From NCBI GenBank assembly GCA_028681135.1, contig JAQUJC010000004.1:8107-72106 (forward strand): a DNA stretch of 64,000 nt. Reading direction: 5' to 3'. The position numbers and the translations under genes are program-made. Positions 11,395-39,168 of the stretch are shown here, piece after piece. How positions within the stretch are numbered: position 1 is the stretch's first letter; each line of letters begins with the position of its first letter. The stretch is from Kiritimatiellia bacterium (GTDB lineage Bacteria; Verrucomicrobiota; Kiritimatiellia; CAIQIC01; Lenti-01). Below the pieces are notes generated by a model, which saw only the letters and a program-made list of their open reading frames with translations, was not told the DNA's origin and did not search any database.

Positions 11395-11409
11395 TACGGG
11401 AGCGCGACC

Positions 11410-12654: not shown

Positions 12655-12760
12655 GACTGCCCATCCACCGGGCTTGTACCGGTGTGCTTAAGGTTGTGCA
12701 GCCATAATAACTGCCCCGCCAACCTAACCATCCCCGGGACAAGCCCGGGGGATTTTCCCA
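12655..12760. repeat. Dispersed structured element, family B, copy 1. Two copies of the hairpin CCGGGCTTGT(A/C)CCGG in opposite orientation bracket a conserved ~50-nt loop.
   Basis: The copy is near-identical to the one at 50208..50310. It reads gactgcc(c/t)atccaccgggcttgt(a/c)ccggtgtgcttaagg...aaccatcccc(g)gGacaagcccggggg. The outer stems are mutually complementary over ~15 nt. Confidence 0.6.
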
Positions 12761-12899
12761 ATCCTGCACAATCCTGTTAATTGCCACTCCGTTCGCAACG
12801 CTCACTCGTTCGCTCCGTCAGCGGAGCGCTATAGACTTCGCGTTCGCCCTGCGTCCGGCTGGTGCCGGACTTGAGCTCGGCACTCAGCTATTCTGTCTA

Positions 12900-13070
12900 A
12901 ACTGGCTGCCCCCTTCCCTCCCCCTTTGCGTCTTCGCGTCTTTGCGTGAGACAGCTGTTTATTGAACGCGGGCAGGACGGAGCCTGCCCCTCCAGAAATC
13001 TCATTCGTGTGATTCGTAGTTTCTCTTCTCCGTTGTTCTTTCCTGAGTTCATGAGTTCAAATTCATTCCC
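12900..13070. repeat. Dispersed intergenic element, family A, copy 1 (gcgtctttgcgtgagac ... cattcgtgtNattNgtagt ... TTCCTGAGTTCATGAGTTCA(A/G)ATTCA).
   Basis: The same composite motif recurs at 46100..46260 and 50380..50545. A short variant sits at 50313..50337. Confidence 0.6.
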
Positions 13071-13087
13071 CTCTGGAAGTGGACAAA

Positions 13088-13120
13088 AAAACGCCGCGGA
13101 TTTCTCCGCGGCGAGTTTTC
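13088..13120 (-). terminator. Rho-independent terminator closing the ~19-kb minus-strand operon.
   Basis: The minus-strand RNA would read cgccgcggagaaauccgcggcg followed by UUUUUUU. This is a 9-bp GC stem with a 4-nt loop and a run of seven T residues. It lies 14 nt after the lipoprotein stop. Confidence 0.75.
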
Positions 13121-13133
13121 CGGCAGATGGATG

Positions 13134-14114
13134 CTACCCAGGTTCTTCGGCCCCTTCTTCACCGCCTCCACTGACGACTGGAACAGAGGTCGTCTGGCCA
13201 GAGATGTTGCCCGTCTTGCCGCCAATCTCGATCCAGTTACCATTGAGGGTGCGCCCAGTAAAGACCCTGGCCGCCACCGTTCCTTGCAACGTACCCACAA
13301 TCTTGACGTTCACACCCGCCTTGCTGATACCCTCGCATTCAAAGGATGCCACGATGCTATCCCCATCCGTTGGCAAGGGGCTTTCCTGATACGTGTACTT
13401 GGCGGACTTATCATTGCCCTCTTCATCGGCCCCCACCTGGGTGATGTCCGTGTTTTGACTGCCGGATGCCGACTGCATCTTCTTGATCCGACCGCTATAG
13501 GTGGCGCCATTGTTGTCGGTGAACGTCAGGTGCTGCCCTTGATGCATAATATTGAATGAATAGATACTGAACCGGGTTGATCCGGGTCTGGCACCGCTCC
13601 CAGAAGCCCCCTCGTTGGACACTTCATATGAATAGCTCGCACGAACAATGCCGTTAAAGACCGGCCCGATCACACCTGGATTCAGGGAATAGGTCCACGT
13701 TCCAGCCACATAAGAAATGGTTCCAGACCCCTGCCCTCCGCTCAGGAGACCGTTCCCATCGTCCGAGATACTATCCCACAGCACACCCGAACTATTGCTA
13801 AAGTCGATTTTCACGGATCCGGCAGAAATGTTGCCCTTCGTGAGCTTGCCCGAAAAAACAGTCTGCCCTCCCGAAAACCCTGGCTGGCTTTCATTTGAAA
13901 CCGAGAGAATGTTTGTGCTGCCAGGCGTGGCAGGCGTGGTGGTGTAATCGGTCACCAGAAAACCACCAGCCGCACTACGGTACACCCCGCTGAAGTTGAC
14001 CCAATCATAGGAGGAACTCCAGCTTTCGCCGTCACTGGTTGACGTCCACTCGCATCCCATGAGACCCAGCGCCGCTATTGCTGCGCACATACCGATTAAT
14101 ATAATCCGTTTCAT
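13134..14114 (-). CDS. Putative lipoprotein of unknown function, rich in Ser/Gly/Thr. It is the last gene of the giant-protein operon.
   Basis: The signal peptide plus lipobox reads MKRIILIGMCAAIAALGLMGC. No catalytic motifs are evident. GC content is lower than in neighbouring genes. Confidence 0.6.
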   Translation of the reverse strand: MKRIILIGMCAAIAALGLMGCEWTSTSDGESWSSSYDWVNFSGVYRSAAGGFLVTDYTTTPATPGSTNILSVSNESQPGFSGGQTVFSGKLTKGNISAGSVKIDFSNSSGVLWDSISDDGNGLLSGGQGSGTISYVAGTWTYSLNPGVIGPVFNGIVRASYSYEVSNEGASGSGARPGSTRFSIYSFNIMHQGQHLTFTDNNGATYSGRIKKMQSASGSQNTDITQVGADEEGNDKSAKYTYQESPLPTDGDSIVASFECEGISKAGVNVKIVGTLQGTVAARVFTGRTLNGNWIEIGGKTGNISGQTTSVPVVSGGGEEGAEEPG

Positions 14115-14222
14115 CCTGTCCCGTCTCCTTGCTAGATGCTACAACATTTGCTTACTTTAAACTGTTTATTCATCTGGCGTCAACGCCATTTGCTGGAGGC
14201 GACTAGTCGCCCCCGGCCAACG

Positions 14223-17200
14223 CTACTCCACGTACCGAATACGGAAGAACTTGGTGCCCCGACCGGGTGCGGGCGACACCGTGTTAGTATAAACCCCAGG
14301 CTGGGTGACCGCCGCCCGGAATTCCTCTTTCCACCCGCCTGGGGCCAGATTGGTGGCCGATTGGACCACGACGACTTTAGGCATGAGGCCAAGCACCTCG
14401 TAGGTCAACAAGAGCTGCTCTCCACTCTTCACCAGTGGTCCAACTGTCAGTTTAGGAATAGCCAGGGGCGCTGGATAGGTTTGGGTGGGATCTCTTCCCT
14501 GCGCAAAATTATCAATGTCTTTCCAGCCATCGCCACTCAAGTTGGACTGACCGTTCATGGTGGTGAGATTGCCCGCATAGCGATATTCATACGAGTCGAC
14601 GATTCCATCGTTATCGGTATCGGCATCGTAGATGACCAGATCGTTACCTGAATATTCGGCTAAGTTCCTGATCTTTATCCGTTTTTCAGCATAATCCACG
14701 CTATAGATAGTTGGGGTGTCAACGGTCCGGTCGTCCCGGCTGCCCTTGACCAACCCCCAGTTCTCGCCTTCATCCAGCACGCCATTGTTGTTTCGGTCGT
14801 AGAAGGCACGGACATGGAAATCACCAATCTCAACCCCCATCAGACTATACTCCCAATAGCCCGACCGGGGAATGGCCAACGCCTTGATCAAGACGCCGTT
14901 GCCGGAATACGCTTCGGCCACGATCTGAGCGTTAGATTCCCATCCATAGTAGTAAATGCGCCCCTTAATCATGGCGGCCCCGCCCTTTGCCGGCGGCTTG
15001 AAGCTCACCGCGAAATTCACCCAGTCGCTGGTGACGGATGCGCGCGGGTTGTAAGCCCGGACCTGGATGCGATACTGGCCATTCGTGAGAGCTCCGAAGC
15101 CAGCCAGCAACGGCAAATCAATTTCCGCATTCCCATCCAGGTTCACATAAGGCCGGTATTGGGTGGTGTTCAACACCGTCTGACCCGTTGCCGCATTCTG
15201 GATTTGAATCTGAATCCTGGTGGTATTAGGGTCCAGTTTCATGCGCAGTTTTTCGCGGGCAAAAATAAGATTGCCCGTCGGATATTCAACCACCGGCTTC
15301 GCTAGGGAGGACGGATAGGCGATCGCATTGGTCCCGCTGGCGAACACAACGCCATCGACAGTTCCAACCGTCCACTCATAGGAGCCGTACATCGGCTCGA
15401 TACCGCCCAGTTTCAGATCCATTTCCATAATGTTCGGGCGGCCCAGCGACTCAAGGTTGCGGGTGGTCGAGTAGATGATCGGTTTGCCCGCCTCGCTCAG
15501 CGCTTTGATCGCGACCCGGTAGGTGGTTCCAGCGACGTGCGCGATCGCCTCTTGAATCGCACCCATCTGCTGTTCCCAGGAGAAACGAATATATCCGGCG
15601 GGCTTGTCAGTTAGAGGAATCTTGATGTTCACTGCACCCAACTGGATGTCTTCTATACCGCTCTCGCTAAAGCCGAGCCACTCACCTGCATTCCACTTGC
15701 CATCGGCATTCATATCGATAAACGCCATGAAAATATTGGGACCTTTGTGTACATGGCCAATCGACCATTCAGTGACAGTTGCCATCGTTCCACTTTCAAA
15801 GACGCTTTGGACGGGAATCAGGACTTGAGCGTCTGGTGCCTGCATTTCAAGATCGGAAAAGGCCCACACAATCAAAGCCACAGCATCCGGCTCCAGATAA
15901 CCATCATCTGATATCTCAAATTCGGTAGCCACTACATATTCAAGAGCTTGGCCATAAAAATTGAACTTAAACTGGGGCAAAGGAAACGATTTTCCATCGT
16001 CTGGCCTTGTCGGGGATACAATGGTTCTATCCACAATTTCCCATTGGACATCCCAAGTTTGATTGCTTGCTATCCAGTTTGATACTGCTTGATAGCTATA
16101 ATCAACACCGGTTCCCAGATACTCGGACAAGTTATCCCAGCCATCGTTATCTGGATCGAGGTTGGGATCGTATCGCCGCGGGCTGCAGGCTAGCGGGAAG
16201 ATCGACTCCCAGGCATCGGGCATTTTGTCGGTATCCGTGTGCAGGGTGCCATAGGTCGCACCAGTGGTGGGGCTGTCATAGTCGCCTCGACCATCGCCAT
16301 CGGAATCGAATCGATTGGGATCAGTTCCGGCCTGCAATTCCGCCCAGTTGTTCAGACCGTCGTGGTCTGGGTCGCCCCAGGCACCAAAAGTGAAGTCGGC
16401 CGGGTCGTAGACATAGCCGACCTCGTCGCCAGGCGAGCTATTCCCATCGGGGTCCATGCCATTCAAGATATCCCACCAGTTGGGAATGCCATCGTAGTTG
16501 TTGTCTTCCTGGAAGGGATATTCGGCCGGATCCAACTCTACGAACTGGACATCGCTGATCATTTGACCGGCATAATCCCAATCCAATGGATTCTGGTAAT
16601 CTTCCAGAGTGAACCCGCCATCATCCGCCGGATAATAGCCGGCTAAGGCCAACCGATAGATCTGGATGGGATCCGTGAGGATCGAGGGATAATCGCCGGT
16701 CTCCATGCGCATGGCCGGAAAAATATACACTCCCGGTTCCTCTGCGTTGTCCTTTACTATTGCGCGATCTTCCGCCAACTCGCTGCGCTGGAAGTCAAAG
16801 TTGAAGTAGGTGATCAAACCGGGTTCGTTGCCGTACAGGCTTTGCTTGTTATAGAGGTTCAGCTCTCCGCGGGACAAACCGCGATTCCAGACCCGGACTT
16901 CGTCGGCATCGGCCGCAAGCTGATGGCCAATCGAGAGCGGACCTGCCAGGCTGCGAACCCCCCAGTTCACAATTTTCTCTCCCAAGGGCACCAGGGTAGG
17001 ATCCTGGACGGCATCGATGATTCCATCTACATATAAGGCCGCCTTGTTGGCATCACGCACATAGGCGACATGATGCCACTCCCCATCATTAATGGGCATG
17101 GCCCCGACGATATTATTGACGGTGGGATTCAAGATGACCTCAGACTCATCGATCACACCTTCTTCCCCTTCTTCCTCCTTGGTATAGGCGAGCACCCAGC

Positions 17201-20200
17201 GTCCGATCAGGGTGCCATCGGATTGCATGCCGAGATAATAGTTAAAATCCTCGCCGCCGAGATCGGTACCGGTATTCCAGCGGGCGATAATCGTTCCAGG
17301 CGACTGGCTCGTTGTTTTCACCCAGGCTTCCAGCGTCCAAGTGTCCAGGGAATCGATTGTAATGCCGGTAACGGGGTCCGCCGTCAAGCAGTTCTGCCGC
17401 AAATGATCATTGCCGCCGGTGGTGCGCAGGACGGCTGGATCCAAGGCGCCGTAGCCCAGGAACAGGTTGCGGCCCTTGAAGGCGGCAATTTCGGCATCCG
17501 AGCGGGAAATGGCCCAAACGCGGATTTCCTTGAGGTCGCCTACATATCCATTACCACCGAACACGAGGTCGCCAGGGCCTTGGGCCGGGACCAGTGTGGC
17601 GGGGCCATAGTTATTCCGCTTGCCATCCACAAACAGCGACAACACGCCCGTCGCCAAATCAAAACGAGCCGCCACATGGGTCCATTCGGAGAGCGCCAGG
17701 GGCGTCAACCCAACGATTTCCTTGATGACTCCGCCCGCGCCGCTTTGGAAGCGCACATAGGGCATGGCGTTGGTAGTCAATCCCAGTTCATAGTTGATCC
17801 GGCCTGTGGCTTGAACCTGGCGCGAGACCAAAGAAACGCGAGTGGCCGGATAGGCGGCCGGGCGAACCAGCGCTTCGATCGTCCAGTTGGTCAAGCTGTG
17901 GCGTTCGGTCTCTTCCAAGCCGATCTTGTCGCTAACCACCACCTGCCCGACACCCCCGCCATCGCCAAATCGCAGCGCCCGGAAAATCATCGGGCTGTAG
18001 GAACGCCTTGGATCACTTTCCCGATTATCTACCCCACGGACTTCGTCCCCATCGTTAATTTCATCGTCATCGGTATCCATTCTGGTGGGATCCGTGAAAT
18101 AGATATTCAACTCGTCATAGTTGGACAGGTCATCGCCATCGGAATCCCAATCGGCGTCGGAGATAATGCCGGCGGGATCGAGTGAGAACTCGTTGAACGG
18201 ATCGACCCCCAGTCTGTAGGACCAATAGTTGTTGATGCCGTTCCCGTTGGGATCCAGGTTGGCAATGGAGTCACCCAACGGATCGTACCCGTATTGCTGG
18301 TACCACCAATCGGGAATGCCATCGCCATTGGAGTCATAGACTGTGTTGGTTCCCGGTCCGGCCCCATCCCACAATTCAACAACGGAGTCGATGCGCGCAA
18401 AACGCAACGGCAGCAAGTCATTGAACAATGGCGACTGGGTGGCGGGGTCGAATGCCCGAGCGACCGGATACACATCGGGGTGGCGCTCCATCCGGTAAAA
18501 ATTGGCATGATAGTAGCCAAGGTTGTAAGGGTTAGCGGTATTCGGGAAGGAGCGGGTCAGGGTGTTGTCTGCCAGCGAATAGGTGGAGGTATGGTAGGGA
18601 GAATCGGCGGGAGGATCGAGCGGCAGCCGGGCGACAAGGTTAACGATCCAAGGAACATACAGGTAGTTGTTGTACACCAGTGACCGATCGGCGGCCGTAC
18701 CCCACCACGGAACATGGGGATAGGAACCATCGTTCGGGCGTCCATTTAGAAGATCAAATCCAACCGGAAGAATGCCCTCGCTTGAGGGGTCCAGCAGGTT
18801 GTCGAAGTTATAGAGATACTTGAGTTCGGGCGTGGCATTGGTGGACAGCAGCGGACGTTGGTACGTCTTGACATCGGCCATGCGCAACTTGCGAGACATG
18901 TCGCGTTGCACTTCTGTCATGGTTTTTGCGCCATTCCAAATTCGAACTTCATCCACCCACCCTACAAGGAAGCTGTGCAGATCCGGGGCCGTGAAGGTGG
19001 TTCCCGCCTGAGATCCGACCCAGACCGGCTGGCCATTGACCCGGCCGACGGGATTGCGGTCGGCAGCGCCGACCACGAGCGGGGCATCAAACGTGAAGCC
19101 AGGATTGACATCCAGATAAATCGGATCCGGCGTGGACCAGCCATTGGCAGGACGCTCGGCGGAAGCAATACTCGCACGCATTTCGCCGTTCACATAGAGG
19201 AACAATTTCTTTTGGGCACCATCGTAGACCCCGGAGAGGTGCTGCCACCGGTCGGCTTCCAGCGGGTGGATGCTTTTGGCGATGACATCCTGATACTCGA
19301 GTCCGTCAAAGCCCGCACCTGTATAGGAAACCAAAGGTCGTCCATCGGCATCGATCGCCAGCCGGAAGTTGCGGCGAATGCCTTCCGGAAAACTCATGAC
19401 GTTTCCATCGGGAATCCAGACTGGGCGTTCAACCACGACTTGGAGCGCGCCGGAGGCGGGCTCCACAGGCTTGACCCACGCCTCGACCGTGAATTCGGTC
19501 AGATCGTTCAAGCCATGCAGGAAACTGCCCCGGGTACGAGCGGCGGCATCGCCGTTGAGGTACAAAGCACGGCGGCGCGGTGGTGCCTCCGAACTCAACG
19601 GATCAGTGCTGCCCGGACTTGCTTGCGAATCCACGAGTTCGGCCCGGTCGCCCAGCATGTCGGCATCAGTGTCGAAACCTTCGGAATTTTCGAACGAGAA
19701 CAGATAACTGGGCGGTGTCCAGCCCGAAGGGCCGTAGTACCATCCGGGTGCCAACAAGGCTAGAGAACCCAGGTCGTAGTACAGGTTTACAAAGCTACTC
19801 TGATAGCTGGGGTCGGTGATCCAGGAAGGGGATGGGTCCGTATGATAATACTTGGGCGGGGGCGCATTGGGTTGAAGCGATTCCTCCCAGTTGGGCAATC
19901 CGTCCTGGTCAGGATCGGCAAAGGGCGACCCCGCAACATAGGGGGCCACACGGATGTCAAAGGTGGGGGGCATCCCCGCCAAGACCGTTGCGCCCAAAAC
20001 CATGGAGTTGTGCACATCCAGTACGCCAAACATAGGATTGAGACCGTGGTAGATCTCCCAATAGTCATCCATGCCGTCGAGATCGGTGTCGAGAAGCCGA
20101 GGATTCGTCGAGGTGTAGCGGCTGTTAACGGGTGGGATGAAGAAGAACGGCACCGTATTGACATTGAGGTGCCAATCCCAGGCGAAAGGAGTCCCGGTGA

Positions 20201-22268: not shown

Positions 22269-22327
22269 CGATCCTGATGGTGCCGATCCCGTTACGATCC
22301 TTGTCGTTCAAAATCTGCTTTCCGGCG

Positions 22328-22888
22328 CTACTCGCGCCCCATTTCTTGACTGCTGCTCCCGGACCCAGAGGCCCCTTCACTCAATAAAGCCCTGATTTGC
22401 TCCATCAAATCGGCACGCCGGCTGCCAAGGGCTCGATATTCTTCTGACTCATTCAGCAGCGTGAGGCGGGCGACCACCTTCATTTTTCGCTGCTCGCGCA
22501 ATTCCGATATCTGAGCGTTCCATTCATCGGACTTTGCAGGCGTTTGCTCCAATTGCTCAATCAAATCTCCAATCTGCCGACTGATTTGCTTGATTTCAGC
22601 CGTCAGCTCCTTAAGCGGTCCCGCTTGCGCCGCTTGGGTCTCAAACTGATGCATTTCTCGTTTGTTTTGCATGAATTCTGTACGTAATTCCGCCATACCG
22701 GATTGCGCGACTTGCTCCGTTATCACGACCACCGCCTCAGCAGCGGCAGGTTCCGTCGCCGAAATGTCGCCAAAAGCCCCCCGGGGAAATACAGCCAACA
22801 CCACCGTCAGTGCCATCCCCATGGCACTCAGCAAGACACGCCAGGGGGCTACGCCCAACTGCGTGGTGTAAGTAATTGCCTCAATCAT
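22328..22888 (-). CDS. Small signal-anchored coiled-coil protein (186 aa), encoded immediately upstream of giant protein 1.
   Basis: An N-terminal hydrophobic segment (VLLSAMGMALTVVLAVFP) is followed by ~130 aa of heptad-like Glu/Gln/Arg/Leu-rich sequence. It has the same architecture as the ORF 31911..32489. Confidence 0.65.
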   Translation of the reverse strand: MIEAITYTTQLGVAPWRVLLSAMGMALTVVLAVFPRGAFGDISATEPAAAEAVVVITEQVAQSGMAELRTEFMQNKREMHQFETQAAQAGPLKELTAEIKQISRQIGDLIEQLEQTPAKSDEWNAQISELREQRKMKVVARLTLLNESEEYRALGSRRADLMEQIRALLSEGASGSGSSSQEMGRE

Positions 22889-22983
22889 TCGATGTAACCT
22901 ATTGTATTACCATTCTTCTTGTCAATGCTATCCACCCTCTCGCCTTTAGCCTTGTAGGTCGATCCACTCATGGTCCGCCCTGC

Positions 22984-25900
22984 TCATGGAATCCTGACCG
23001 GACGGAAGAACTGGAGAGGCTCGTCCATGGTGTTGGTATAGCCCATCACCCCGTCCACCGTCGCTGTGAAGACCGCTCCCGGCACAGCACCCCACTCCCC
23101 GGAAGGTAAATTTGAGGAAGACTGCACGGTATAGATTGCGCCAGCCCTTCCCAGCCATCTGACCGAGAAGGGAGTGCTGGACGACACATTTGCCACGAAC
23201 GGACCGACGGCCGGATCCGTGGGATCACCGCTGTGCGCCACTTCCTGGCCGTCATCCCAGCCATCGCCGTCCGTATCCGGATTCTGCGGATCGGTCTGGA
23301 GGCGGAATTCGCCAATATTCAAGAGCCCATCGCCATCGTCATCCAGCAGGGCATCGAGCGGGTTGGTAGGATCCAATCCATTGAGCACTTCCCACGCATC
23401 GTCCATGCCATCACCATCGCCGTCCACGGTCGCCTCCAATTTCTGCAAGCGATTATTCCACGTGTCCGCCACAATGATCGAGGACGACATCAAGGACGGT
23501 GCCGCATCATGGGGAAAGCTGACCTGTCCATCGCCGCCCCCTTGCTGTCCCAAACTTCCCACATGGGCTCTGGACGAGTCCAGCACCTGAATCCGGTGGT
23601 TGGAAGTGTCCGCCACAAAGAGACGATTACCCAAGCCGATCTGAATGCTCATGGGTTTGTTGAACTGCCCCGCACCGGTACCAAACGAGCCGGTCTTCCA
23701 TAGGAATGTGCCGCCGCTCGTAAAGCCTTGTAAGCGGTTGTTTTCGGTGTCCGCCACATAGACAATTCCGTGCTCGTCCACCGTGATCCCCTGGGGAGAG
23801 TTCATCTGACCATTGGCGGTTCCAAAGACACCGAAGGAGAACAACTGGACGCCATTCGGGTCGAAGACCTGAACGCGGTGGTTGTCCTTGTCCGCGACGT
23901 AGAACCGCCCCAACGGCCCAATGGCCACATCACGCGGATTATTGAACTGGCCCACCGCGGACCCGTACGACCCGAATTGGCGTTCAAAGACCACCGCCCC
24001 GGTCGTCGGATTGAAGGTGAACACCTGAATGCGGTGATTGGCCGAATCAGCCACGGCGAAACGGTCGGCATTCGGCGCCTTGCCCAAGCCGTAGGGCGTG
24101 GCGAACTGGCCCGCGTTCGTGCCATCCGAGCCGTAGGTTAGCACATGGGTGAGCGTCGTGCGGTCCCAAACCGAAACCCGGTTGTTCTGGCGGTCCAGCA
24201 CAAATACAAATTGATTGGTCAGGAACAAGCGCGTCGGAAAATGGAATTGGTTGGTCTCGCTGCCAATTGTTCCTGCCACCTGCTCTAGGGTCCACTCCGC
24301 TTCCAAGGGGACAATCGGCGCGCGTGGATCCATCCCGTTCAGAATGCAGTAGCCGTCGGGAATGGAATCGCCATTACTATCCCGCACCGTGGCAAGGGAA
24401 CCGGGGTATCCCAATACTTGGTCGACCACCCACGTTCCAAAATCGTGGGTCTCGTTCGCGGATAGATCCAGCGCATATACCCCCGAGTCGCCATACGCCA
24501 CGGAACCCTCGAATGTCGCCGCATCCCAGGCGCGGACATAGACGTTGCGGACCGGGGTGGTTTCCATAAAGTCGTGATGGAAAATTTCATCAAATCGACC
24601 CAGTTCGGGCAACCATTCATAACCCACGCCGATCCGTCCATGATTCTTATTGAAGGGGAAGGTGAACAGCACGGTGTCATCGCCCGTGGTGCTGCCATCC
24701 GAAGCGGGCAGATTGACAACTCCATCGGGACCGGCGTACACGAGCTGGAATAGGCTGGCTTCGGCCCCACCCGTTCCCGACAGGAACTGGTTCATCCAGT
24801 TCTTCACGCCTGTGCTGGATTGTACACGCAGGGTGGGTTGAACCACATTGAAGGTAACCGGAATCGCTTGAACAACCGCCCCGGGATAATTGCCGCGAAT
24901 GATGAGCACCGCCTCGTGGAGGCCAATCGTCAGGCCCGCCGATTCAGCCTTGAGTGTGACCGGCAGCTCGCTGTTGTCCACACTGGCGCTGACGGGCGAG
25001 GCATTCAACCACGGGACCGCCTCCAGCAACTCGTTTTCGACCAGCCCCCGCAAGACATCCTGCCAGGCACCCCTGGTTTGCCATTCGGCGGCATCCTGGT
25101 TTCCGTTCCAAAGAATCACCACGCCGCCGGTGCCGGTTTCGCGGCGCATCAGCTTGCTGGCCCCTTCCACCCCGAAGTACACCGCCGGAGCTTCATTGGT
25201 ATCGACCGTGGCTTCATCATAGGCCATGGAGGTGACCGCCACATGATCACCGGGCTGAATGTCGACCCAGAACGGGTCGATCGGCAGCGCCTGGACCAGT
25301 TCCGCCATGTCTTCCGCCTCCGGCGCGCGGTCCAGCGAGTCGGACCCGACCAGATCGCGCAGACGCCGATCATCCGGACGGGACAATACATGGGCACCGA
25401 CCACGATGAGCTTGCCGCCCTGATTCAGATAGGTCTGGAGCAGCGATTCTTCGGCCACCGACAGCAAGCGGCCCGTGCCAGCGGTTCCGCCCAGATCCAG
25501 AATCACGAGATCCTGCGGCAAAATAGCCTCCGGATCAGTGCTATGCCTTCCTGTCAGCACGCCCTCCACTGTGACCAGATTGTTGGACCACATCGATACG
25601 GTCCAGCCCGCTTGCTCCAGCACCGGCTGGACGAGTGCCAAGGCATTCCGGTCGGAAATCAAGGCAATCTTGCGCGGTTGGGCGGTGAGGATATCGAACT
25701 CAAATTCATCAACAGACAGATTGGAAAACAGCAGTGTTTGTTCCTGATCCTGTCCGGCCTGGGCCGCAAATACCATCTGCGTGGCCCCAAAGGCGATTTC
25801 GGGACGGCGCAAAGAGAAGTCTGCGATTTGGTTGCCGCCGACAAGGGTCCGAATGGTCGCCGGCGGGGTTTCGTGACTTTCGCCCAGTACGCGGAACCGA

Positions 25901-28900
25901 TAAGTACCGTCTTCCAATCCGTCGATGCGATAGGATCCATTGCTTTCCGTCAGGACTCGGCCACTGGATGCCCCCCAGTATTCAACCGTCAAGCCGGCCA
26001 GGCCGGCCGCTGTCAGCGCATCGCGCACCGTTCCGGAAATGGTCTGTCGCGGGGCCACCGGAAGGGTGAACGGCAAGACTCCATTCGCCAGAGTCAGGGT
26101 GAAATCCACGTCGCCGGTTGCATTCGGCAGGGTAACGCGGAAGCCCGCGAGGTTGACCTGCTGGTCGCCGCTGGAAATGCCCGGCCAGGTGGCCGTTCCC
26201 TGCACGATGGTCACGCCCGGCGTGGTGCTGGTCAGTGTGCCGGTCGGACTCATATAGAGAGCTGAGCCATCGTTGAGCAGACGAATGAACAGGTCCACGG
26301 TCTCGGCGGGTTCGGCGTGGCGGTCGCCGTCGCCGGTCGCCTGATCATCCACTGCGACGTCCGTAATCACAGGAACTGGGGCCGGGGCCACGTTCACGGT
26401 CACCGGAATCGACAGCTCATTGGCTCCGCCGCGCACGACGATATGGGCGATATAGCTCCCAGCGGGCAGTTGACCGCCCGCGTTGATGGTGACGCCGACC
26501 GAGAGCGTATCCAGCGACACGATGTTGGCTCTGTGGGTATCCACCTGTAGCCAGAATGCCTGGATGTGTTCCAGCGCTGCCGCCGCATCCAAATGGCCCG
26601 CCGAGGACACCACGCCTTCCAGGACGGGGTCGCGGCGTGCGCCCAGCATGATGGCGTCGCGCAGCATGTCATAGGTCGCCCAGGGTGCCACGGATTTCAA
26701 CAGGCCCGCCACGCCGGCGACATGAGGGGCGGCCATCGATGTGCCGCTGAGTCGCTCGTAGGCATCAAGCGTTCCGTACATATAGGTGCTGAGGATATCC
26801 ACGCCCGGCGCGGCAATATCCACGGACTGCGCGCCGTAGTTGGAGAAGTCAGCCAAGGCTCCATCATGGTCCGTGGCTGCCACGGAAATGATGTTGTCGA
26901 GATTGTACGAGGCCGGATACGACCGGTACGGCTGATCGTCGTCGTTGTTCACCGCCTCGTTGCCCGCGGCAGCAACGAACAGATGCTCGTTCGCCATGGC
27001 GTATTCGATCATTTCATATTCCACTCCGCTGAAATAGTAACCCCCGTAACTGTGATTGCTGATTTTCACGCCGTTGTCGACGGCATATTCCAAGGCGGCC
27101 AGAATGGCGTCGGAGGACAGCACGGCCTCTTCGATGCCCAACTCATTCACCCCCACGGTCGCCACCTTCAACGGCATGATTTTGGAATGCCAATTGACGC
27201 CCGCCACCCCGATGCCGTTGCCGCCGGAGGCCCCCACCGTACCCGCCACATGGGTGCCGTGCTCGACGCCAGCCACCGGGTCAGGCGACGGATCGGGGTC
27301 GTCATCGCCGAAATCGTAGCCGGCAACCAGATTGTCTGCCAGATCGACATGGTCGAGTTTCACGCCGGTATCCATCACCGCAATGACCACATTGGTGTTG
27401 CCCACCGTGGTGTCCCAGGCTTCCTGAGCCCGGATATCCTCCGCGAGGGTTCCACCCGTCTGGCGGGTGTTGTCCAGTCCGTACATCTGCGAATAGAGCG
27501 CATCGTTGGGCACGGCGAACACCTCCCGCCGATAGTTAGGCTCCACGTAGCGAATGGCGGCATCCGTCGTGAGCGTGTTCGCCACCCATTCCATGGATAG
27601 ATTGCCAGGAACCCGGACGTGCGCAGCCGACACCCCGTGGTAGCGGCGCAGAACCTGGCCGCCCACCGCGGCCAACGCGCTCGCCTGCGCTTGAATAGCG
27701 GAGCCATCTTCAAACCGAACGAGCAGCTCCTGCTCCACCGCCTCGGAGGGCAGCGCGGTCCAATCGATCTCCGGCAGATCCAAGCTCCCAATTCGGTCAT
27801 GGGGAACACCCTGTACCAATTCCAATCCGATTTCGACAAATCCAGCGTAGGGGCCGTCATTGGTGAGGTCCAACGTCAGATTAGTTTCCACGCCCTCCGG
27901 CAGATTAACAACGATGTTGGTAGGCAGGGCGGAAATGCCCCATGCCGCCACCTCAAAGTCCACATTTTCAGCATTGGCGGAGGCAATCACCACGTTCGAC
28001 GAGGGCGGCGCGCCATAGGGCGCGGGCGGCAGCACATAGACGTCGTAGGTGTTGTTGGTCAGGCCAAACAGGCTGTAGTCGCCCGCGGCATCGGTGAGGG
28101 TCTGCACAGTACCTCGGTCGCTGACGGCCTTGACGACCGCGCCTTCCACAGGATCGGTGGTGTCCAGGTCGGTGACCTGTCCGGAGATGGCGTAGCGTAC
28201 CGTCACCGTCAGATCAAAGGTATGGGTGGTGACCCGGGCATCCGCATCGGTGACCTCTAGTGAAAACGGCAGTACATCGCCCTCCCCGGCCAGCGGATCG
28301 ATCTGGATCTGAGGATATTCCGCCAACGGCGGATCCAGCACTGGGCCTTCCACGCCGCCGGGCAGGACATGGGCCCAGGACGCATTGGGTTGCGTCACCG
28401 TTGTGGCATCAGCCCCCGTATAGCTGAGGACTCCTTCCAGCGACAACGCCAAAAGACTGCCCGAATTACCCAGCATGATATCCATATCTACGGCTTCGCC
28501 CGGTTCTGCAAAGGCGTCGCCATCGCCGCCGGTGACTCGCACGCCATACACGTACAGAGTGGGGCTCGCCATTACGGTCAAACTTGCTGGAATCAAAATA
28601 TCCTCGCCGCCCGCGTCATTGCTCATCAAACGGATAACGGCTTCATAGGGCTGCTCCGAGGCGGCCAGCGCCGAGGCATCGGCGGTCAGGGCAACCGGCG
28701 CACCCGCGCCGACGGGAACCACGCCTGCGGACGGATCCGTCGTCAGCCAGATGGGGACTTCCGTCATGGCCGGATGTGCCGCAACGTCCACCACGATCTC
28801 GTATGACAAAGGCAGGTCCCCCGCCGCATTATCCAGACTCAGAGTGTCCAGCGCGCTTTCGCCTTCGTTCACTTCCCACTCATATATCAACGGAGCCGCA

Positions 28901-31900
28901 TTGGCCCAGGCTGTCCCCAAGCCGAAGTTGGCCATGGATGGCCCCGTCGCCGTGATTACGTCGCTGGGTGAATACTCGCCAGGCTTTAGCGCCTGAATAT
29001 CGTAGGCCACACCGGGAACCAGGCCATGCAACCCGTAGGAGCCATCGGCTTCAGATGTCGCCATGACATCCGGATACCCCGACGCCTGCCCGCGAATCAA
29101 GGCCTCTTCGATGGGTGCGCCGGTGAACAGATTGGTCACGAGACCATATACGCTTTCCCGCGTCGCGATTTCCAGGGTCAACATATCGGGATACGGCCCC
29201 AGACCGCCATCGGCGGTGGCGCTGTGGAAAACAGTGAAAGGCGTTTCCTGGGGAATATCCACCTCCGTCGACAGCGCCAATTGCGTCCCGCTCAAGGCCG
29301 AATCCCCTGGTTGCAGATCCCCGTAGAGAACATACGAAGTCGCAGGCGTCAAGGTCACCTCGGGCGTCGGCACGGTGACCGATGCCTGCACGTTGCTGAA
29401 GATCTGGGTCTGCATGGAATTGAAGACTTCCAAATTTAAGAAAAAGCTCTCACCTGGTTCGGCATGCCCATCGCCGTCCCCGCCGGCTGCGTCATCGATC
29501 TCATAACCGATGATATTGATGCCCGGCGGCAACACATTGGAGATGCGGACATCGTCAATATACCAGCCCGCCGCCACACCCTCATCGCCGGACTCAATAC
29601 GGAACCGCACCCGGATCGTTTGATTGGCGAACCCGGGCAGGTCGAGGCTCACCGCCTGCCAGCCCGCAGAGGAGCCGGTGACCAGCTCCGTGACGTTGAC
29701 CCAACCGGAGCCCCCGTTGACCTCGATGACGCCAAAATCGCTTTCCGCAAACTGATGCCACGACTGGAACTCAAGGCGGGGGCTCAACTTGACGGCCACC
29801 GGCGTGCTGACCAGCGATGCCAGGGCCAGAAGCGGATAATTGCCATCCAGAACGGTGCCCCAGAGCCGTTCGCCCGAGGTGGCGCCCGGAGGACCGTAGG
29901 ACGGCATGCCGTATTCCCAGCAGGTCACGTCGTTCAGGTTGGTGAACGTCCAACCGGCTTCGCCCGATTCCATGTCGTTTTCATAGACCGTGCGGCGGAC
30001 GGGGGTGATGAAGGTCAAGTAGTCCTCTTCGTTCGTGGAGGTCAGATCCGTCGGCGCCGAGGCCTTGTTCCCCGCGTAGTCCTCTGACAAAACGGCCATG
30101 ACGTATTTCGTCGAGCCTTCCACCGGGACCGTCACCGTATGCACGTATTGCGTCGTGGCGCCGATCACGGTCGGTGTGCTGACATAGGTGCCGCCGCCGA
30201 TTTCCGGCAGCAGCGCATCCAGCCCCCCGGGCGGAATTTCTGTCGTGAGGATGTAGCGGGAATCCGCCGGCTCATCCGTCGACCAGCCGACCGTCGCAAA
30301 ATCCTCCGCCACGTCCACCATCTGCACGTCGCTGATGACCGGCGGTGTATCGTCGATCAGGACTGAAATAGAGGCCGTTTTGAGACTCGGACTTTCATAG
30401 GTGACGGTCAGGGTGTCGTCCTCCACCGCCGTTGTGCCGCTGACCAGGTCAAACGAATTCGTGAATGTGGTTTCATCGACGCCGACCGTCAACAACGTCT
30501 CCGTGCTGGCCCACCGCACGACATCCAAGGGGTCCACGACTTCCACGGCCACGTCCACATCCGTCGGCAGAGGAGCAATCAACGTGGGGTCGTTCACCGT
30601 GACCTCGACCGTGGCGTCCGAACGATAAGCCTGGCGATCCAACGTGAGTTGCGGCCCCAGAGCAGCGATCGCGGCAAACAGGTCCAGTTCGCCGCCGGTG
30701 ACGGACTTGCCATCCAATGCCGGATTGGGCGCCACACTCTCCAAAATCGCGTCCCGGATCTCCTGATAGGTATAATCCGGATTGAGACTCCACAACAAGG
30801 CCGCCGCGCCCGCCACGTGCGGGCAGGCCATGGAGGTTCCTTGATACGAATCAAACTGATCGCCGGCCCCGCCGGGGACCGTGCTCAGAATATCCACGCC
30901 CGGCGCCGCCAAATCCACGCTTTCAAGCCCATAATTGGAAAATTCGGCCAGCGAACCGCCTTCCGCGATAGCCGCCACCGAGATGATGTTAGGCAAGTCG
31001 TAGCTGGCCGGATAGGCCGGGGTTTCGTCGTTGTCGTCACCCACTCCGTCAAAACCGCCGTTGCCCGCCGCCGCAATAAATAGCTGCCCGTACGTCTCCC
31101 CGGCCACTTTGATGGCATCATACAAGCCCTGGCTGGCACCGCCACCGCCCCAACTGTTGTTGGTGATCTTGATCTTCAGGGCCGTGTTGGTGGCCGCGTA
31201 TTCCACCGCGCGAATGGCATCGTCCGTACTGCCGTACGGATCCAGGAACTTCAGGCTGATCATCTTGACGTTCCAGTTCACGCCGACCACGCCGAACGTG
31301 TTGTTGCCGACCGCGCCAATGGTGCCGGCCACATGCGTGCCATGTCCGGCGTTATCCCGTTGATCAGCGGTGTTGTTGGCGAAATCATAGCTGCCCGGCG
31401 CGATATTGGCAGAAAGATCCTGATGCGTGGTAAGAATGCCCGTATCGATGACCCCGACGACAATCTCTGGGCTGCCAACGGAGATATCCCACGCTTCGGG
31501 CGCGCGGATGCGATCCATACCCCACAAATCGCCATCGACATAGGAAGGATCATCCGGGGTCGTCGCGTAGGCCCGCACGATGTAGTTGGGCTCGACATAC
31601 GCCACCGCCGGATGGGCCATGTATTGTTTGGCCACCTGGGCCATTGAAAGCCGCTGCGACAGCTTCACGTGGACAACCGGGGTGATCGAAAACTGCCCGA
31701 TCACCTGTGCGCCAAGCTGTTGATGAAGGGCATGGATGCTGGCCGCTGCCACACCCGGCTTGAAGCCGATCAGCAATTCGCCCGGGACATAGTCCTCGGT
31801 GAAAACCGGGCGGTTCCAATCCACCCCCGCTGGAGGGGCGGCCCACCCCATGCTGGCCATGAATAGGCTGCCCAGGAGCAGCCAAAATCCGCAACGTGCT

Positions 31901-31914
31901 CGATTGGTTTTCAT
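22984..31914 (-). CDS. Giant secreted multidomain protein (2976 aa). It has two complete inhibitor-I9 + subtilisin (S8) protease units, CARDB-like and carboxypeptidase-regulatory-like beta-sandwich domains, a six-repeat NHL beta-propeller, thrombospondin-type-3-like repeats, and the shared C-terminal module.
   Basis: A signal peptide is present. S8 unit 1 has the catalytic residues in VGVIDTG, HGTHVAG and GTSMACPHVAG, around nt 31530-30650. S8 unit 2 has them in IAVMDTG, HGTHVAGTVGA and SGTSMAAPHVAG, around nt 27560-26500. Both units are preceded by an I9-like propeptide. NHL repeats (NHRIQVF, NHRVQVFDPNG, NNRLQGF, NHRIQVLD, NNRLQKLE) lie around nt 24050-23270. Asp-rich repeats follow (DGDGDGMDDAWE, DDDGDGLLN, DTDGDGWDDGQE). 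The C-terminus reads ...YTVQSSSNLPSGEWGAV...GYTNTMDEPLQFFRPVRIP. Confidence 0.85.
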   Translation of the reverse strand: MKTNRARCGFWLLLGSLFMASMGWAAPPAGVDWNRPVFTEDYVPGELLIGFKPGVAAASIHALHQQLGAQVIGQFSITPVVHVKLSQRLSMAQVAKQYMAHPAVAYVEPNYIVRAYATTPDDPSYVDGDLWGMDRIRAPEAWDISVGSPEIVVGVIDTGILTTHQDLSANIAPGSYDFANNTADQRDNAGHGTHVAGTIGAVGNNTFGVVGVNWNVKMISLKFLDPYGSTDDAIRAVEYAATNTALKIKITNNSWGGGGASQGLYDAIKVAGETYGQLFIAAAGNGGFDGVGDDNDETPAYPASYDLPNIISVAAIAEGGSLAEFSNYGLESVDLAAPGVDILSTVPGGAGDQFDSYQGTSMACPHVAGAAALLWSLNPDYTYQEIRDAILESVAPNPALDGKSVTGGELDLFAAIAALGPQLTLDRQAYRSDATVEVTVNDPTLIAPLPTDVDVAVEVVDPLDVVRWASTETLLTVGVDETTFTNSFDLVSGTTAVEDDTLTVTYESPSLKTASISVLIDDTPPVISDVQMVDVAEDFATVGWSTDEPADSRYILTTEIPPGGLDALLPEIGGGTYVSTPTVIGATTQYVHTVTVPVEGSTKYVMAVLSEDYAGNKASAPTDLTSTNEEDYLTFITPVRRTVYENDMESGEAGWTFTNLNDVTCWEYGMPSYGPPGATSGERLWGTVLDGNYPLLALASLVSTPVAVKLSPRLEFQSWHQFAESDFGVIEVNGGSGWVNVTELVTGSSAGWQAVSLDLPGFANQTIRVRFRIESGDEGVAAGWYIDDVRISNVLPPGINIIGYEIDDAAGGDGDGHAEPGESFFLNLEVFNSMQTQIFSNVQASVTVPTPEVTLTPATSYVLYGDLQPGDSALSGTQLALSTEVDIPQETPFTVFHSATADGGLGPYPDMLTLEIATRESVYGLVTNLFTGAPIEEALIRGQASGYPDVMATSEADGSYGLHGLVPGVAYDIQALKPGEYSPSDVITATGPSMANFGLGTAWANAAPLIYEWEVNEGESALDTLSLDNAAGDLPLSYEIVVDVAAHPAMTEVPIWLTTDPSAGVVPVGAGAPVALTADASALAASEQPYEAVIRLMSNDAGGEDILIPASLTVMASPTLYVYGVRVTGGDGDAFAEPGEAVDMDIMLGNSGSLLALSLEGVLSYTGADATTVTQPNASWAHVLPGGVEGPVLDPPLAEYPQIQIDPLAGEGDVLPFSLEVTDADARVTTHTFDLTVTVRYAISGQVTDLDTTDPVEGAVVKAVSDRGTVQTLTDAAGDYSLFGLTNNTYDVYVLPPAPYGAPPSSNVVIASANAENVDFEVAAWGISALPTNIVVNLPEGVETNLTLDLTNDGPYAGFVEIGLELVQGVPHDRIGSLDLPEIDWTALPSEAVEQELLVRFEDGSAIQAQASALAAVGGQVLRRYHGVSAAHVRVPGNLSMEWVANTLTTDAAIRYVEPNYRREVFAVPNDALYSQMYGLDNTRQTGGTLAEDIRAQEAWDTTVGNTNVVIAVMDTGVKLDHVDLADNLVAGYDFGDDDPDPSPDPVAGVEHGTHVAGTVGASGGNGIGVAGVNWHSKIMPLKVATVGVNELGIEEAVLSSDAILAALEYAVDNGVKISNHSYGGYYFSGVEYEMIEYAMANEHLFVAAAGNEAVNNDDDQPYRSYPASYNLDNIISVAATDHDGALADFSNYGAQSVDIAAPGVDILSTYMYGTLDAYERLSGTSMAAPHVAGVAGLLKSVAPWATYDMLRDAIMLGARRDPVLEGVVSSAGHLDAAAALEHIQAFWLQVDTHRANIVSLDTLSVGVTINAGGQLPAGSYIAHIVVRGGANELSIPVTVNVAPAPVPVITDVAVDDQATGDGDRHAEPAETVDLFIRLLNDGSALYMSPTGTLTSTTPGVTIVQGTATWPGISSGDQQVNLAGFRVTLPNATGDVDFTLTLANGVLPFTLPVAPRQTISGTVRDALTAAGLAGLTVEYWGASSGRVLTESNGSYRIDGLEDGTYRFRVLGESHETPPATIRTLVGGNQIADFSLRRPEIAFGATQMVFAAQAGQDQEQTLLFSNLSVDEFEFDILTAQPRKIALISDRNALALVQPVLEQAGWTVSMWSNNLVTVEGVLTGRHSTDPEAILPQDLVILDLGGTAGTGRLLSVAEESLLQTYLNQGGKLIVVGAHVLSRPDDRRLRDLVGSDSLDRAPEAEDMAELVQALPIDPFWVDIQPGDHVAVTSMAYDEATVDTNEAPAVYFGVEGASKLMRRETGTGGVVILWNGNQDAAEWQTRGAWQDVLRGLVENELLEAVPWLNASPVSASVDNSELPVTLKAESAGLTIGLHEAVLIIRGNYPGAVVQAIPVTFNVVQPTLRVQSSTGVKNWMNQFLSGTGGAEASLFQLVYAGPDGVVNLPASDGSTTGDDTVLFTFPFNKNHGRIGVGYEWLPELGRFDEIFHHDFMETTPVRNVYVRAWDAATFEGSVAYGDSGVYALDLSANETHDFGTWVVDQVLGYPGSLATVRDSNGDSIPDGYCILNGMDPRAPIVPLEAEWTLEQVAGTIGSETNQFHFPTRLFLTNQFVFVLDRQNNRVSVWDRTTLTHVLTYGSDGTNAGQFATPYGLGKAPNADRFAVADSANHRIQVFTFNPTTGAVVFERQFGSYGSAVGQFNNPRDVAIGPLGRFYVADKDNHRVQVFDPNGVQLFSFGVFGTANGQMNSPQGITVDEHGIVYVADTENNRLQGFTSGGTFLWKTGSFGTGAGQFNKPMSIQIGLGNRLFVADTSNHRIQVLDSSRAHVGSLGQQGGGDGQVSFPHDAAPSLMSSSIIVADTWNNRLQKLEATVDGDGDGMDDAWEVLNGLDPTNPLDALLDDDGDGLLNIGEFRLQTDPQNPDTDGDGWDDGQEVAHSGDPTDPAVGPFVANVSSSTPFSVRWLGRAGAIYTVQSSSNLPSGEWGAVPGAVFTATVDGVMGYTNTMDEPLQFFRPVRIP

Positions 31915-32489
31915 AATTGATCGGACTCCTCCGCCGAGCGGGTCGCACCCGCTTCCTCGAGTTCAGGCGCGGCATCCTCGGCCATGTCCGCCTGTTTCTT
32001 TTCCAACGCCTGCAGTTCAAGCTGGACCCGGACCCGGTCGTTGGCCAGTTTCATGGTCTCGCGCCTGATCTCACTTGAACGCCCGACAACGACGGTTTGT
32101 CGGGAGGTGAACGCCACATAATTGGTATGTTCTGACATGCGTTGCGCCAGTGCTTCTTGCTGGGCATGCAAATCGCGCTGCATCGCTTCGATTTGCTCCA
32201 CCATTTCCCGTAATTCTTCGTCGGTATCCAATAGGTGCTGGCGAAGTTCAAACTGTTCGCGCTGTGCCTCGCGCGCCTGCGTCATCAACCCCTTTTTTTC
32301 GTCGTCAAGCACAGCCATCTGGCTATCAATCCGCTCGACCCGATTCCGAGCCTCGTGAATCTGTTCTTCCAATTCTTCCGCCGTTGGCATGAACGCCCCA
32401 GTCTGAGTTTCGTTCGCCAAGCCTACGAACGGAAATACTGCGATCAAGACCGCAAGAAAAGCAACTGAATAGACACGGCAAAACAACAT
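31911..32489 (-). CDS. Small signal-anchored coiled-coil protein (192 aa). It is translationally coupled to giant protein 2 by a 4-nt overlap.
   Basis: A preferred start gives MLFCRVYSVAFLAVLIAVFPFVGLANE..., a signal or TM segment followed by a long coiled coil (EELEEQIHEARNRVERIDSQMAVLDDEKKGLMTQAREAQREQFELRQ...). The stop overlaps the ATG of the giant gene. The architecture is paralogous to 22328..22888. Confidence 0.65.
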   Translation of the reverse strand: MLFCRVYSVAFLAVLIAVFPFVGLANETQTGAFMPTAEELEEQIHEARNRVERIDSQMAVLDDEKKGLMTQAREAQREQFELRQHLLDTDEELREMVEQIEAMQRDLHAQQEALAQRMSEHTNYVAFTSRQTVVVGRSSEIRRETMKLANDRVRVQLELQALEKKQADMAEDAAPELEEAGATRSAEESDQL

Positions 32490-32806
32490 GCTTAACCTCT
32501 CCTTCTCGATGCGCCACAAAATGGGCCCAGTCAGCCCAATCCTGCAGAAAGTGCGGGTTCTTTTGCATGGCCTACGCACAACCCGCACCTGCTTTATTCA
32601 TCATGCGTTGTTCCTTCACTGCCAAGAGATAGGCCTCATGCCCTATTTACGGTGAGTAGACCGCAAAAATGAGGGGCTGGCAATCAAAAAAATGCCGCAG
32701 CGCCTTGCGGAGCTTCTACGATTGGATAGAGGGGTCAGCGGAGACGCCGCCAGACAGCGGGGGCGATGGTTGGTAGAGCTAAAAATCGGCGATGCAGTTG
32801 CCGACG

Positions 32807-33691: not shown

Positions 33692-33721
33692 GGGAAGTCA
33701 ATCGCAGACGCCACAGCGCGA

Positions 33722-34214: not shown

Positions 34215-34322
34215 GTCCGCCCGTGGAGGAAATGGCATGGCTGGGCCCCCTTTGGAGAATGCATCTGGAAATCAGGAAAAGGAGACACAGTCGAGCGGCC
34301 ATTTTTTGAAAGGATTAACCGG

Positions 34323-39063: not shown

Positions 39064-39168
39064 GGGTGGCCCTTACTGAATGGCCGACGAGCAAAAACCG
39101 CCCGACGGGGTCGTCGGGTCTCCATGGAAAACAAAAACCACCGAATTGGAGCTGGAACAGCGGGACCT

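Follow-up and report, generated by a model that had tools for sequence, protein, structure and literature searches.

Small exported coiled-coil proteins encoded beside giant secreted proteins in a Kiritimatiellia cassette, candidate periplasmic partners of their neighbours

A stretch of 64,000 nucleotides from contig JAQUJC010000004.1 of an uncultured Kiritimatiellia bacterium (assembly GCA_028681135.1; the whole stretch is called the window below) was analyzed for a cassette in which two small coiled-coil proteins, CC2 and CC1, are each encoded ahead of a giant protein. The cassette consisted of five consecutive open reading frames (ORFs) on the minus strand, from about 32.7 to 13.1 kb of the window and without opposing genes, in the order CC2, giant 2 (a double subtilase with an NHL propeller), CC1, giant 1 (rich in LamG domains) and a lipoprotein, and all five products were predicted to be exported. 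The stop codon of CC2 overlapped the start of giant 2 by 4 nt in the form ATGA, and the following gaps were 95 bp between giant 2 and CC1, 59 bp between CC1 and giant 1, and 108 bp between giant 1 and the lipoprotein gene. The gene order, sizes, gaps, overlap and terminator given in the initial annotation, which had been made from the sequence alone, were all reproduced exactly. The gap of 59 bp was counted to a TTG codon; an alternative ATG at 22247, preceded by GGAG, extended this gap to 80 bp and appeared the likelier start of giant 1.

The ATG of CC2 was preceded by the strong ribosome-binding site (RBS) AAGGAGAGG, and a terminator-like hairpin at 32710-32695 lay between the cassette and the upstream ABC-2 permease gene. 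No convincing sigma-70 promoter match was obtained in the operon leader, and no leader RNA or riboswitch was matched in Rfam at E ≤ 1 across positions 12000-34000. Since no minus-strand terminator was seen in the internal gaps, a single transcript for the five genes is likely, and the cassette is likely one operon, its transcript starting near 32.6 kb and ending at the 13.1-kb terminator, a hairpin of 9 pairs with a T7 run read at 13113-13092.

The N-termini of both small proteins contained a hydrophobic segment in the canonical n/h/c layout with a small-x-small site, and cleavage was predicted at ...AVF-PFVGLA/NE in CC2 and ...AVF-PRGAFG/D in CC1 (the slash marks the cleavage). The cleavage sites of the orthologues stayed small-x-small and AxA-like (SIA/E, GVA/Q, SFA/E and ACA/A), and a lipobox took the place of the signal-peptidase site in the small proteins of two relatives, L013 and L028. 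Owing to the n/h/c layout and the small-x-small sites of the orthologues, the small proteins were read as periplasmic and not as signal-anchored, and they are probably soluble in the periplasm, or lipoproteins in the two lineages. Thus, of the N-terminal hydrophobic anchor claimed at first, the hydrophobic segment was found and the anchor was not, the segments looking like cleavable Sec signal peptides. The coiled coil of about 130 aa claimed for each small protein was borne out by a significant heptad periodicity in both, with a hydrophobic period of 3.45-3.5 residues whose observed value was reached in 12 and 1 of 500 shuffles for the two proteins, and by the helices of CC2 in an AlphaFold2 (AF2) model, at residues 37-120 and 122-173; the model (monomer, pTM 0.28) also contained a tail and a disordered linker. 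The family of CC2, designated CC-a, strictly conserved the polar motif LANDRVRxQLELQ and also conserved an acidic tail, AEDPDQL, behind the disordered linker. Because these polar positions and the acidic tail are conserved, CC-a accords better with a specific binding partner than with a coil that is structural only.

The small genes are real and under purifying selection, with dN/dS values of 0.26-0.36 for CC2 and 0.47-0.55 for CC1, compared with 0.15-0.20 for giant 2. They evolved two to three times faster than the neighbouring giants, and CC-b, the family of CC1, was only 28% identical where giant 2 was 71% identical. Homologous clusters in a set of 5.8 billion proteins numbered 4 for CC1 and 8 for CC2 and were labelled Kiritimatiellia or Kiritimatiellae, and a full search of 1.84 billion proteins with a hidden Markov model (HMM) of the CC2 family returned 28 representative clusters, all of 165-230 aa. 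Identical copies of CC1 were found in samples from the source habitats. Neither protein had a Pfam or NCBIfam match above noise. CC-a and CC-b were described as a lineage-restricted, fast-evolving and previously undescribed family of small exported coiled-coil proteins.

The genomic contexts of giant 2 relatives were collected by exact look-up and by scanning the species representatives of GTDB with an internal segment specific to the family. Orthologous pairs of a protease giant and a LamG giant were found in at least 14 species-level metagenome-assembled genomes (MAGs) with differing neighbourhoods. The giant 1 orthologue followed the protease giant at every readable junction (L012-L020, L022, L024 and L026) except that of L025, where an ORF of at least 1004 aa, cut by the end of the locus and without detectable similarity to giant 1, came after the protease giant. 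A small CC-a ORF preceded the protease giant at 11 of the 14 readable junctions and a small CC-b ORF preceded the LamG giant at 12 of 14, with stop/start overlaps of 4-11 nt in L007, L012, L013, L015, L016, L019 and L020. At two of the junctions that lack CC-a, those of L014 and L023, the sequence upstream of the protease giant reads tRNA-like. A scaffold gap covered the region upstream of the protease giant in L013, so that CC-a was not readable there, and the P0033 locus had two small genes upstream, of 169 and 182 aa, whose sequences were not readable.

The repeated arrangement of a small gene and a giant, proposed from the window, thus recurred in most relatives, down to 36-45% identity of the giants. 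The giant homologues usually had an adjacent coiled-coil gene and the partnership was not obligatory; as either partner is lost in some lineages, its role would be helpful rather than essential. The flanks varied between relatives: in L007 and L012 the cassette came after hisD and an aminotransferase, and in the window after a polysaccharide cluster with an ABC-2 permease and glycosyltransferases. This variation marks the cassette as the conserved unit. When 1.34 Mb of non-redundant loci were filtered with a simple heuristic for ORFs of 100-260 aa with a signal-peptide-like start and at least 50 residues in helix-favouring windows, 33 ORFs were retained, 23 of which lay directly upstream of these giants and about 10 elsewhere. 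No description of this cassette was found in literature searches. The features of the window and the distribution of the small genes are compiled in the following table.

Features of the cassette in the window and occurrence of the small genes among relatives
Feature	Position or loci	Strand	Basis
CC2 = CC-a, 192 aa, Sec signal peptide, ~135-aa heptad-repeat helix in two segments, acidic C-terminal tail	31911..32489	-	sequence and AF2
CC1 = CC-b, 186 aa, long n-region, signal peptide, heptad-repeat helical region with motif NESEEYRAL	22328..22888	-	sequence
Giant 2, 2976 aa, about 312 kDa, pI 4.2, predicted secreted	22984..31914	-	ORF and domain matches
Giant 2, first Peptidase_S8 domain, aa 150-394; D158, H191, S361 motifs	30733..31467	-	Pfam and motif
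Giant 2, second Peptidase_S8 domain, approximately aa 1507-1745; H1552, S1726 motifs	26680..27396	-	Pfam/NCBIfam and motif
Giant 2, NHL-repeat beta-propeller region, approximately aa 2603-2775	23590..24108	-	NHL match
Giant 2, C-terminal ~75-aa beta-sandwich, ends ...QFFRPVRIP, TSP3 repeats before it	22984..23211	-	
Giant 1, 2681 aa from TTG (2674 aa from ATG 22247), about 291 kDa, pI 4.3, predicted secreted	14223..22268	-	ORF and domain matches
Giant 1, C-terminal domain, ends ...KFFRIRYVE	14223..14450	-	HMM and alignment
Lipoprotein, 326 aa, lipobox LMGC at residues 18-21	13134..14114	-	sequence motif
5' leader/promoter region, RBS AAGGAGAGG at its end ahead of the CC2 ATG	32490..32684	-	sequence read
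Terminator-like hairpin and T-run at the end of the ABC-2 permease gene, upstream boundary of the operon	32685..32710	-	CCGCAAGGCGCTGCGG then CATTTTTTTG
Strong intrinsic terminator, operon end	13085..13113	-	9-bp stem, 8 GC pairs, then TTTTTTT
CC-a present	window, L012, L015, L016, L017, L018 (=L007), L019, L020, L022, L024, L025		
CC-a absent	L014, L023, L026		
CC-b present	window, L012, L013 (lipoprotein), L014, L016-L020, L022, L025, L026		
CC-b absent	L015, L024, P0033 locus		

Both giants were strongly acidic (pI 4.2-4.3) and started with a classical Sec signal peptide. Giant 2 contained two units of Fervidolysin_NPro and Peptidase_S8 (PF00082, E 7.3e-107 over two stretches, above the curated cut-off), CarboxypepD_reg domains, an NHL beta-propeller (E 7e-32), calcium-binding TSP3_bac repeats and the terminal beta-sandwich. 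The His and Ser motifs were intact in both S8 units (HGTHVAG at 191 and 1552, GTSMA[CA]P at 359 and 1724), and the double subtilase and NHL content described earlier was thereby upheld. Giant 2 had more than 4000 relatives and more than 80 full-length homologues of its architecture, and it belongs to a broad group of multi-protease/NHL proteins of ~3000 aa in MAGs labelled Kiritimatiellia, Lentisphaerae or Verrucomicrobiota. Within this family of ~3000-4000-aa proteins the protease units were swapped across lineages (P0035, P0046, P0049, P0052, P0061, P0069, P0073, P0075 and others), with thermolysin M4, gingipain C25, papain C1 or fungalysin M36 alongside or instead of subtilase, and the scaffold of CarboxypepD_reg, NHL and terminal domain stayed constant. 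For giant 1, the LamG-rich character was supported by a match to Laminin_G_3 (PF13385, E 1.7e-46, 158.6 bits against a curated cut-off of 27.6, three stretches); three or more such LamG/ConA-like domains were accompanied by dispersed TSP3-like Asp motifs with a TSP3_bac match, and no protease domain was found on giant 1 of the window in the domain scan.

The signal peptides, TSP3-like repeats and shared C-terminal module attributed to both giants were all found, the similarity of the module being weak. An HMM built from the C-termini of the giant 2 family matched the extreme C-terminus of giant 1 with E 8e-4, and the two termini were 30% identical, with a conserved W, a VQ..NL stretch and an FFR motif. 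The C-terminal module of ~75 aa common to both giants is, as far as these alignments indicate, real but weak. Even at E ≤ 10, the terminal beta-sandwich in the isolated C-termini matched no Pfam or NCBIfam model. A beta-sandwich of this type, with the ending F[FY]R-x-[VI]-x-x-P, also terminated eight unrelated ORFs between about 170 and 2100 aa in length (L032, L034, L037, L048, L050, L052, L062 and L094) in MAG loci labelled Verrucomicrobiota or Limisphaerales, and it may serve across the phylum in sorting or surface attachment. It had been asked whether coiled-coil genes always precede proteins with the shared module. They did not: none of the six module-bearing ORFs with a readable upstream flank (of the eight) had an exported coiled-coil ORF upstream, and the coiled-coil gene was rejected as a companion of the C-terminal module. 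As module-bearing ORFs occur elsewhere without such an upstream gene, the small genes belong to the cassette and not to the C-terminal domain.

The lipoprotein that ends the cassette was Gly/Ser/Thr-rich and probably all-beta, with no Pfam or NCBIfam family match. Its signal peptide read MKRIILIGMCAAIAALGLMGC before E and ended in a lipobox, and that of the L014 orthologue ended in LLAGC before E, lipidation being predicted from the motif. The lipoprotein was retained downstream of the LamG giant in L011 and the distant L014 and was absent in L015. In the close relative L011 (10250-18269), the giant 1 orthologue was split into the overlapping ORFs 10250-16324 and 16077-18269, which were uncalled in the source, and the break is likely a frameshift or an assembly error.

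The two halves of the cassette had been regarded as paralogous modules, a claim that was not borne out as worded, any paralogy being at best distant. Direct paralogy of the small proteins was rejected, since CC1 and CC2 matched in BLASTP only with E 7.1 and a signal appeared in profile comparison only. When 21 small proteins from relatives were compared, a CC-a cluster and a CC-b cluster were formed with weak cross-links only. Profile-profile comparison of CC-a with CC-b, in alignments spanning 55-97 columns, gave a probability of 48.6% with small alignments and of 77% (E 2e-5, 55 columns) with larger ones, and 10-15% when one alignment was reversed. The match centred on a shared helix-break motif, which reads E-x-[PT]-[DEN]-Y among CC-a proteins and [NQ]-x-S-E-[ED]-Y among CC-b proteins, and a distant common origin of the two families is plausible. 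The giants were not paralogues, as they had nothing in common beyond TSP3 repeats rich in Asp and the last ~75 aa. "Two analogous modules" is therefore the defensible wording. In the C25-type relative L028 from Lentisphaerales (15137-16650), the giant was followed by a lipoprotein with the lipobox LLTPGC whose coiled coil carried the helix-break motif twice (AEDPEW and EANAEW), and then by a membrane-anchored coiled-coil protein with SDPVY, which suggests a putative wider family of periplasmic coiled-coil proteins with [DN]-P-[EV]-[YW].

Known helper and secretion systems were compared with the cassette. The statement that it is neither a two-partner secretion (TPS) system nor an RTX/type I secretion system (T1SS) was confirmed: no TpsB-type Omp85/POTRA transporter was found by Pfam and NCBIfam among the five operon genes and ten neighbours, neither giant matched the TPS (haemagglutination activity) domain, the N-terminus of giant 2 being a Fervidolysin-type prodomain, and the operon had no barrel, ABC, membrane fusion protein (MFP) or TolC genes and no RTX nonapeptides, the repeats being of TSP3 type. 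The neighbouring ABC-2 permease is of the polysaccharide-export type, lies beyond the terminator-like hairpin and was not conserved beside the cassette. Both systems resemble the cassette in placing giant acidic calcium-binding secreted proteins beside dedicated helper genes; however, both giants here carry N-terminal Sec signal peptides, whereas T1SS cargo has a C-terminal uncleaved signal. PorP/SprF with SprB of the Bacteroidota type IX secretion system (T9SS) are alike in that an accessory gene adjoins each very large surface protein and the cargo has a C-terminal beta-sandwich, but PorP/SprF are outer-membrane beta-barrels needing T9SS and the accessories of the cassette are probably soluble coiled coils. 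No T9SS C-terminal domain (CTD) of the Por_Secre_tail type was matched in Pfam or NCBIfam on the isolated giant C-termini even at E ≤ 10, and the structural match of the terminal domain to T9SS CTDs was a generic fold match.

Lif (LipH/LipB) is an all-helical periplasmic helper co-transcribed with LipA, the lipase secreted by way of a type II secretion system (T2SS) in Pseudomonas and Burkholderia. It is similar to the cassette proteins, by analogy only, as a private helper encoded beside one Sec/T2SS-exported enzyme without being part of the secretion machine. Lif differs in being membrane-anchored, about 340 aa long, encoded downstream of its cargo and a member of Pfam Lipase_chap; the cassette proteins look cleaved, are heptad-repeat coils of 150-230 aa and are encoded upstream of the cargo, with no Pfam match to Lipase_chap and with signal-peptidase-type sites, not an anchor, at their N-termini. 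The dentilisin locus prcB-prcA-prtP of Treponema denticola likewise combines a subtilisin-family surface protease with small upstream co-transcribed accessories needed for stability, and giant 2 gave a partial match to the PrtP model (168 bits, cut-off 300). PrcB and PrcA, in contrast to the cassette proteins, are lipoproteins with no relation to coiled coils, and PrtP has about 700 aa compared with the 2976 aa of giant 2, a double protease with NHL and TSP3 modules. A phage i-spanin (Rz/LysB-like) was rejected for CC1, which reached 15.6 bits against TIGR03495 (cut-off 92.75) with no adjacent or embedded o-spanin and no phage context. Also rejected was DUF3450, a periplasmic coiled-coil protein of TonB-type clusters; it matched weakly in 4 of 27 CC-a members (best E 8.3e-5) and in none of the window proteins. 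The CC proteins did not qualify as members of Lif, PorP/SprF, PrcB/PrcA or TpsB, and their nearest functional analogues appear to be cargo-adjacent private helpers. What is new here is that the dedicated accessory gene beside a large secreted protein is made of an undescribed small coiled-coil family. Since nothing in the analysis demonstrates a new secretion system, the cassette was not filed as one.

As the simplest model, the small proteins are tentatively proposed from the gene arrangement to be private periplasmic escorts or assembly partners that are co-translated with their giant cargo, a reading we consider a good possibility short of probable. The small proteins would be released into the periplasm, or lipid-tethered there in some lineages, where each would bind the neighbouring giant, both being made in step via translational coupling. 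As a private escort, holdase or assembly partner, the small protein would hold the ~300-kDa chain in a soluble, inactive and export-competent state until the giant exits the cell, most likely by Sec and then T2SS. Sec, Tat and T2SS have been reported for Kiritimatiella glycovorans, the first cultured member of the phylum, and T2SS was favoured as the export route because it is the route identified for exoproteins in that species (PMC5148204). In a stronger form, CC-a and CC-b would be a new class of cargo-specific periplasmic adaptors in Planctomycetes-Verrucomicrobia-Chlamydiae (PVC) bacteria, required for the outer-membrane hand-over of the giants or for the surface-complex assembly of the protease/LamG pair, and would define a partner-assisted route distinct from TPS, T1SS and T9SS; this form seems unlikely.

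Several observations weigh against the proposed escort function. A role of the small proteins in secretion, anchoring or display is suggested by synteny, and their proposed function by synteny together with coupling; the signal-peptide cleavage sites were read by eye from the sequence, and the AF2 model of CC2 was a monomer (pTM 0.28), in which the helices may form a hairpin or extend. No similarity of the small proteins to a known chaperone family was found, and no T2SS genes were found in the window regions scanned, although the relative L015 has three GspE-like ATPase genes nearby. In addition, the giants occur without their partner, CC-a being lost in L014, L023 and L026 and CC-b in L015, L024 and P0033.

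The heptad-repeat helices of 84 and 52 residues are typical of oligomeric stalks, and the coiled-coil proteins could instead be co-secreted structural subunits or tethers, with an oligomeric stalk holding or multimerising the giants at the surface, possibly together with the operon lipoprotein; they would then belong to the finished surface structure and not be passing escorts. We regarded this as doubtful. The small protein is a lipoprotein in L013 and L028, a conserved lipoprotein ends the cassette in the window, L011 and L014, and the translational coupling suggests matched synthesis, as for stable complexes. However, most members have an ordinary cleavable signal peptide without a lipid, peptidoglycan-binding or membrane anchor and cannot tether alone; the partners are absent from several lineages and the lipoprotein from L015, and the faster evolution of the small proteins compared with the giants also speaks against a stalk. 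The same fast turnover (CC-b 28% against giant 2 71% identical), together with repeated loss in several lineages and no recognisable domain, would be expected if there were no functional link at all, the small proteins being either lineage-specific exported proteins inherited with the giants or upstream cistrons that aid ribosome loading on very long genes. Such an absence of function towards the giants was judged distinctly unlikely, as both junctions keep an exported heptad-repeat protein across lineages as far as Lentisphaerae (L025), dN/dS is below 1, polar motifs are conserved, comparable ORFs are scarce in the rest of these loci, and a loading cistron would need neither a signal peptide nor a conserved coiled coil.

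The coupling of CC2 to a double subtilase also raised the idea that the small proteins are periplasmic safety catches, inhibitors that silence the protease domains of the giants until export; the LamG giant bears a protease domain in some relatives (C1 in L013, and M10 both in L015 and at the P0033 locus), and the conserved acidic C-terminal tail could serve as a pseudo-substrate. This was considered very unlikely, given that giant 1 of the window has a partner but no protease domain and that the M10-bearing LamG giants are precisely those without a partner. Moreover, N-terminal prodomains of the Fervidolysin type, which usually act as the inhibitor within the molecule, are already part of giant 2, and no similarity to known subtilisin inhibitors or ecotin was detected in Pfam and PDB sequence searches. 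Finally, the small proteins share with Skp/OmpH a similar size, a Sec signal peptide and long arms of helix with which unfolded clients could be clamped, and they might be divergent members of that family. That identity is scarcely credible and was effectively refuted by the absent HMM match, the absent beta core and the tiny family. No match to PF03938 was obtained at E ≤ 10 for CC1 and CC2 or at E ≤ 0.01 among 27 CC-a members, the AF2 model of CC2 had no beta strands for a Skp-type trimerisation core, and the 28 representative clusters compare with tens of thousands expected of a housekeeping chaperone; the CC proteins are lineage-restricted and cargo-adjacent, whereas Skp is housekeeping. 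The check for Skp/OmpH homology called for by the initial annotation thus revealed no similarity at any level tried (HMM, AF2 model, and Pfam and PDB sequence searches).

Additional features were recorded around the cassette. The G+C content was 0.53-0.575 across the lipoprotein, giant 1 and CC1 (window 12001-24000), 0.60-0.62 in giant 2 and 0.60-0.67 in the flanks; the low G+C of the downstream half of the cassette and its varied neighbourhoods are compatible with relocation of the cassette. A surface-polysaccharide cluster lay directly upstream (32807-45994 on the minus and 36508-37737 on the plus strand) and encoded the ABC-2 (Wzm-like) permease, GT87, GT2 and GT4 glycosyltransferases, an AlgX-like SGNH acetyltransferase, MBOAT, a Wzy_C/O-antigen-ligase-like protein, SDR and an AMP-binding enzyme; it was not conserved beside the cassette in relatives. 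On the minus strand at 2970-8540, a bacterial alpha-2-macroglobulin gene adjoining a PBP1C-type gene (640-2973) was interrupted by one in-frame TAA (...CGC TTT TAA CTG GCC ATG...) and so consisted of two ORFs, the N-terminal part with bMG3/MG2 and the C-terminal part with bMG5/6, the bait region, A2M and bMG10. The split could be a pseudogene, a sequencing error or genuine. At 46454-48645 on the plus strand, the gene of a Peptidase_C39-like protein overlapped the next gene, which encodes a RimK-like ATP-grasp protein carrying an RLAN domain; the pair suggests peptide modification or ligation unrelated to the cassette.

Kiritimatiellia and other PVC bacteria degrade polymers in anoxic habitats, where they are abundant. 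To our knowledge, the folding, silencing and export of multidomain proteins of 300 kDa are poorly understood in diderms outside Proteobacteria and Bacteroidota, and the cassette offers a specific candidate, open to testing, for a private helper of such proteins in the periplasm. It also adds a compact uncharacterised family of 28 representative clusters with no Pfam model, for which this cassette is the only known context. Even if the partnership is not real, the cassette would still be a useful marker of large secreted protease/adhesin pairs in these lineages. If it is true, the principle of a dedicated helper beside its cargo, known from Lif, PorP/SprF and TpsB, would reach a new protein type and a new phylum.

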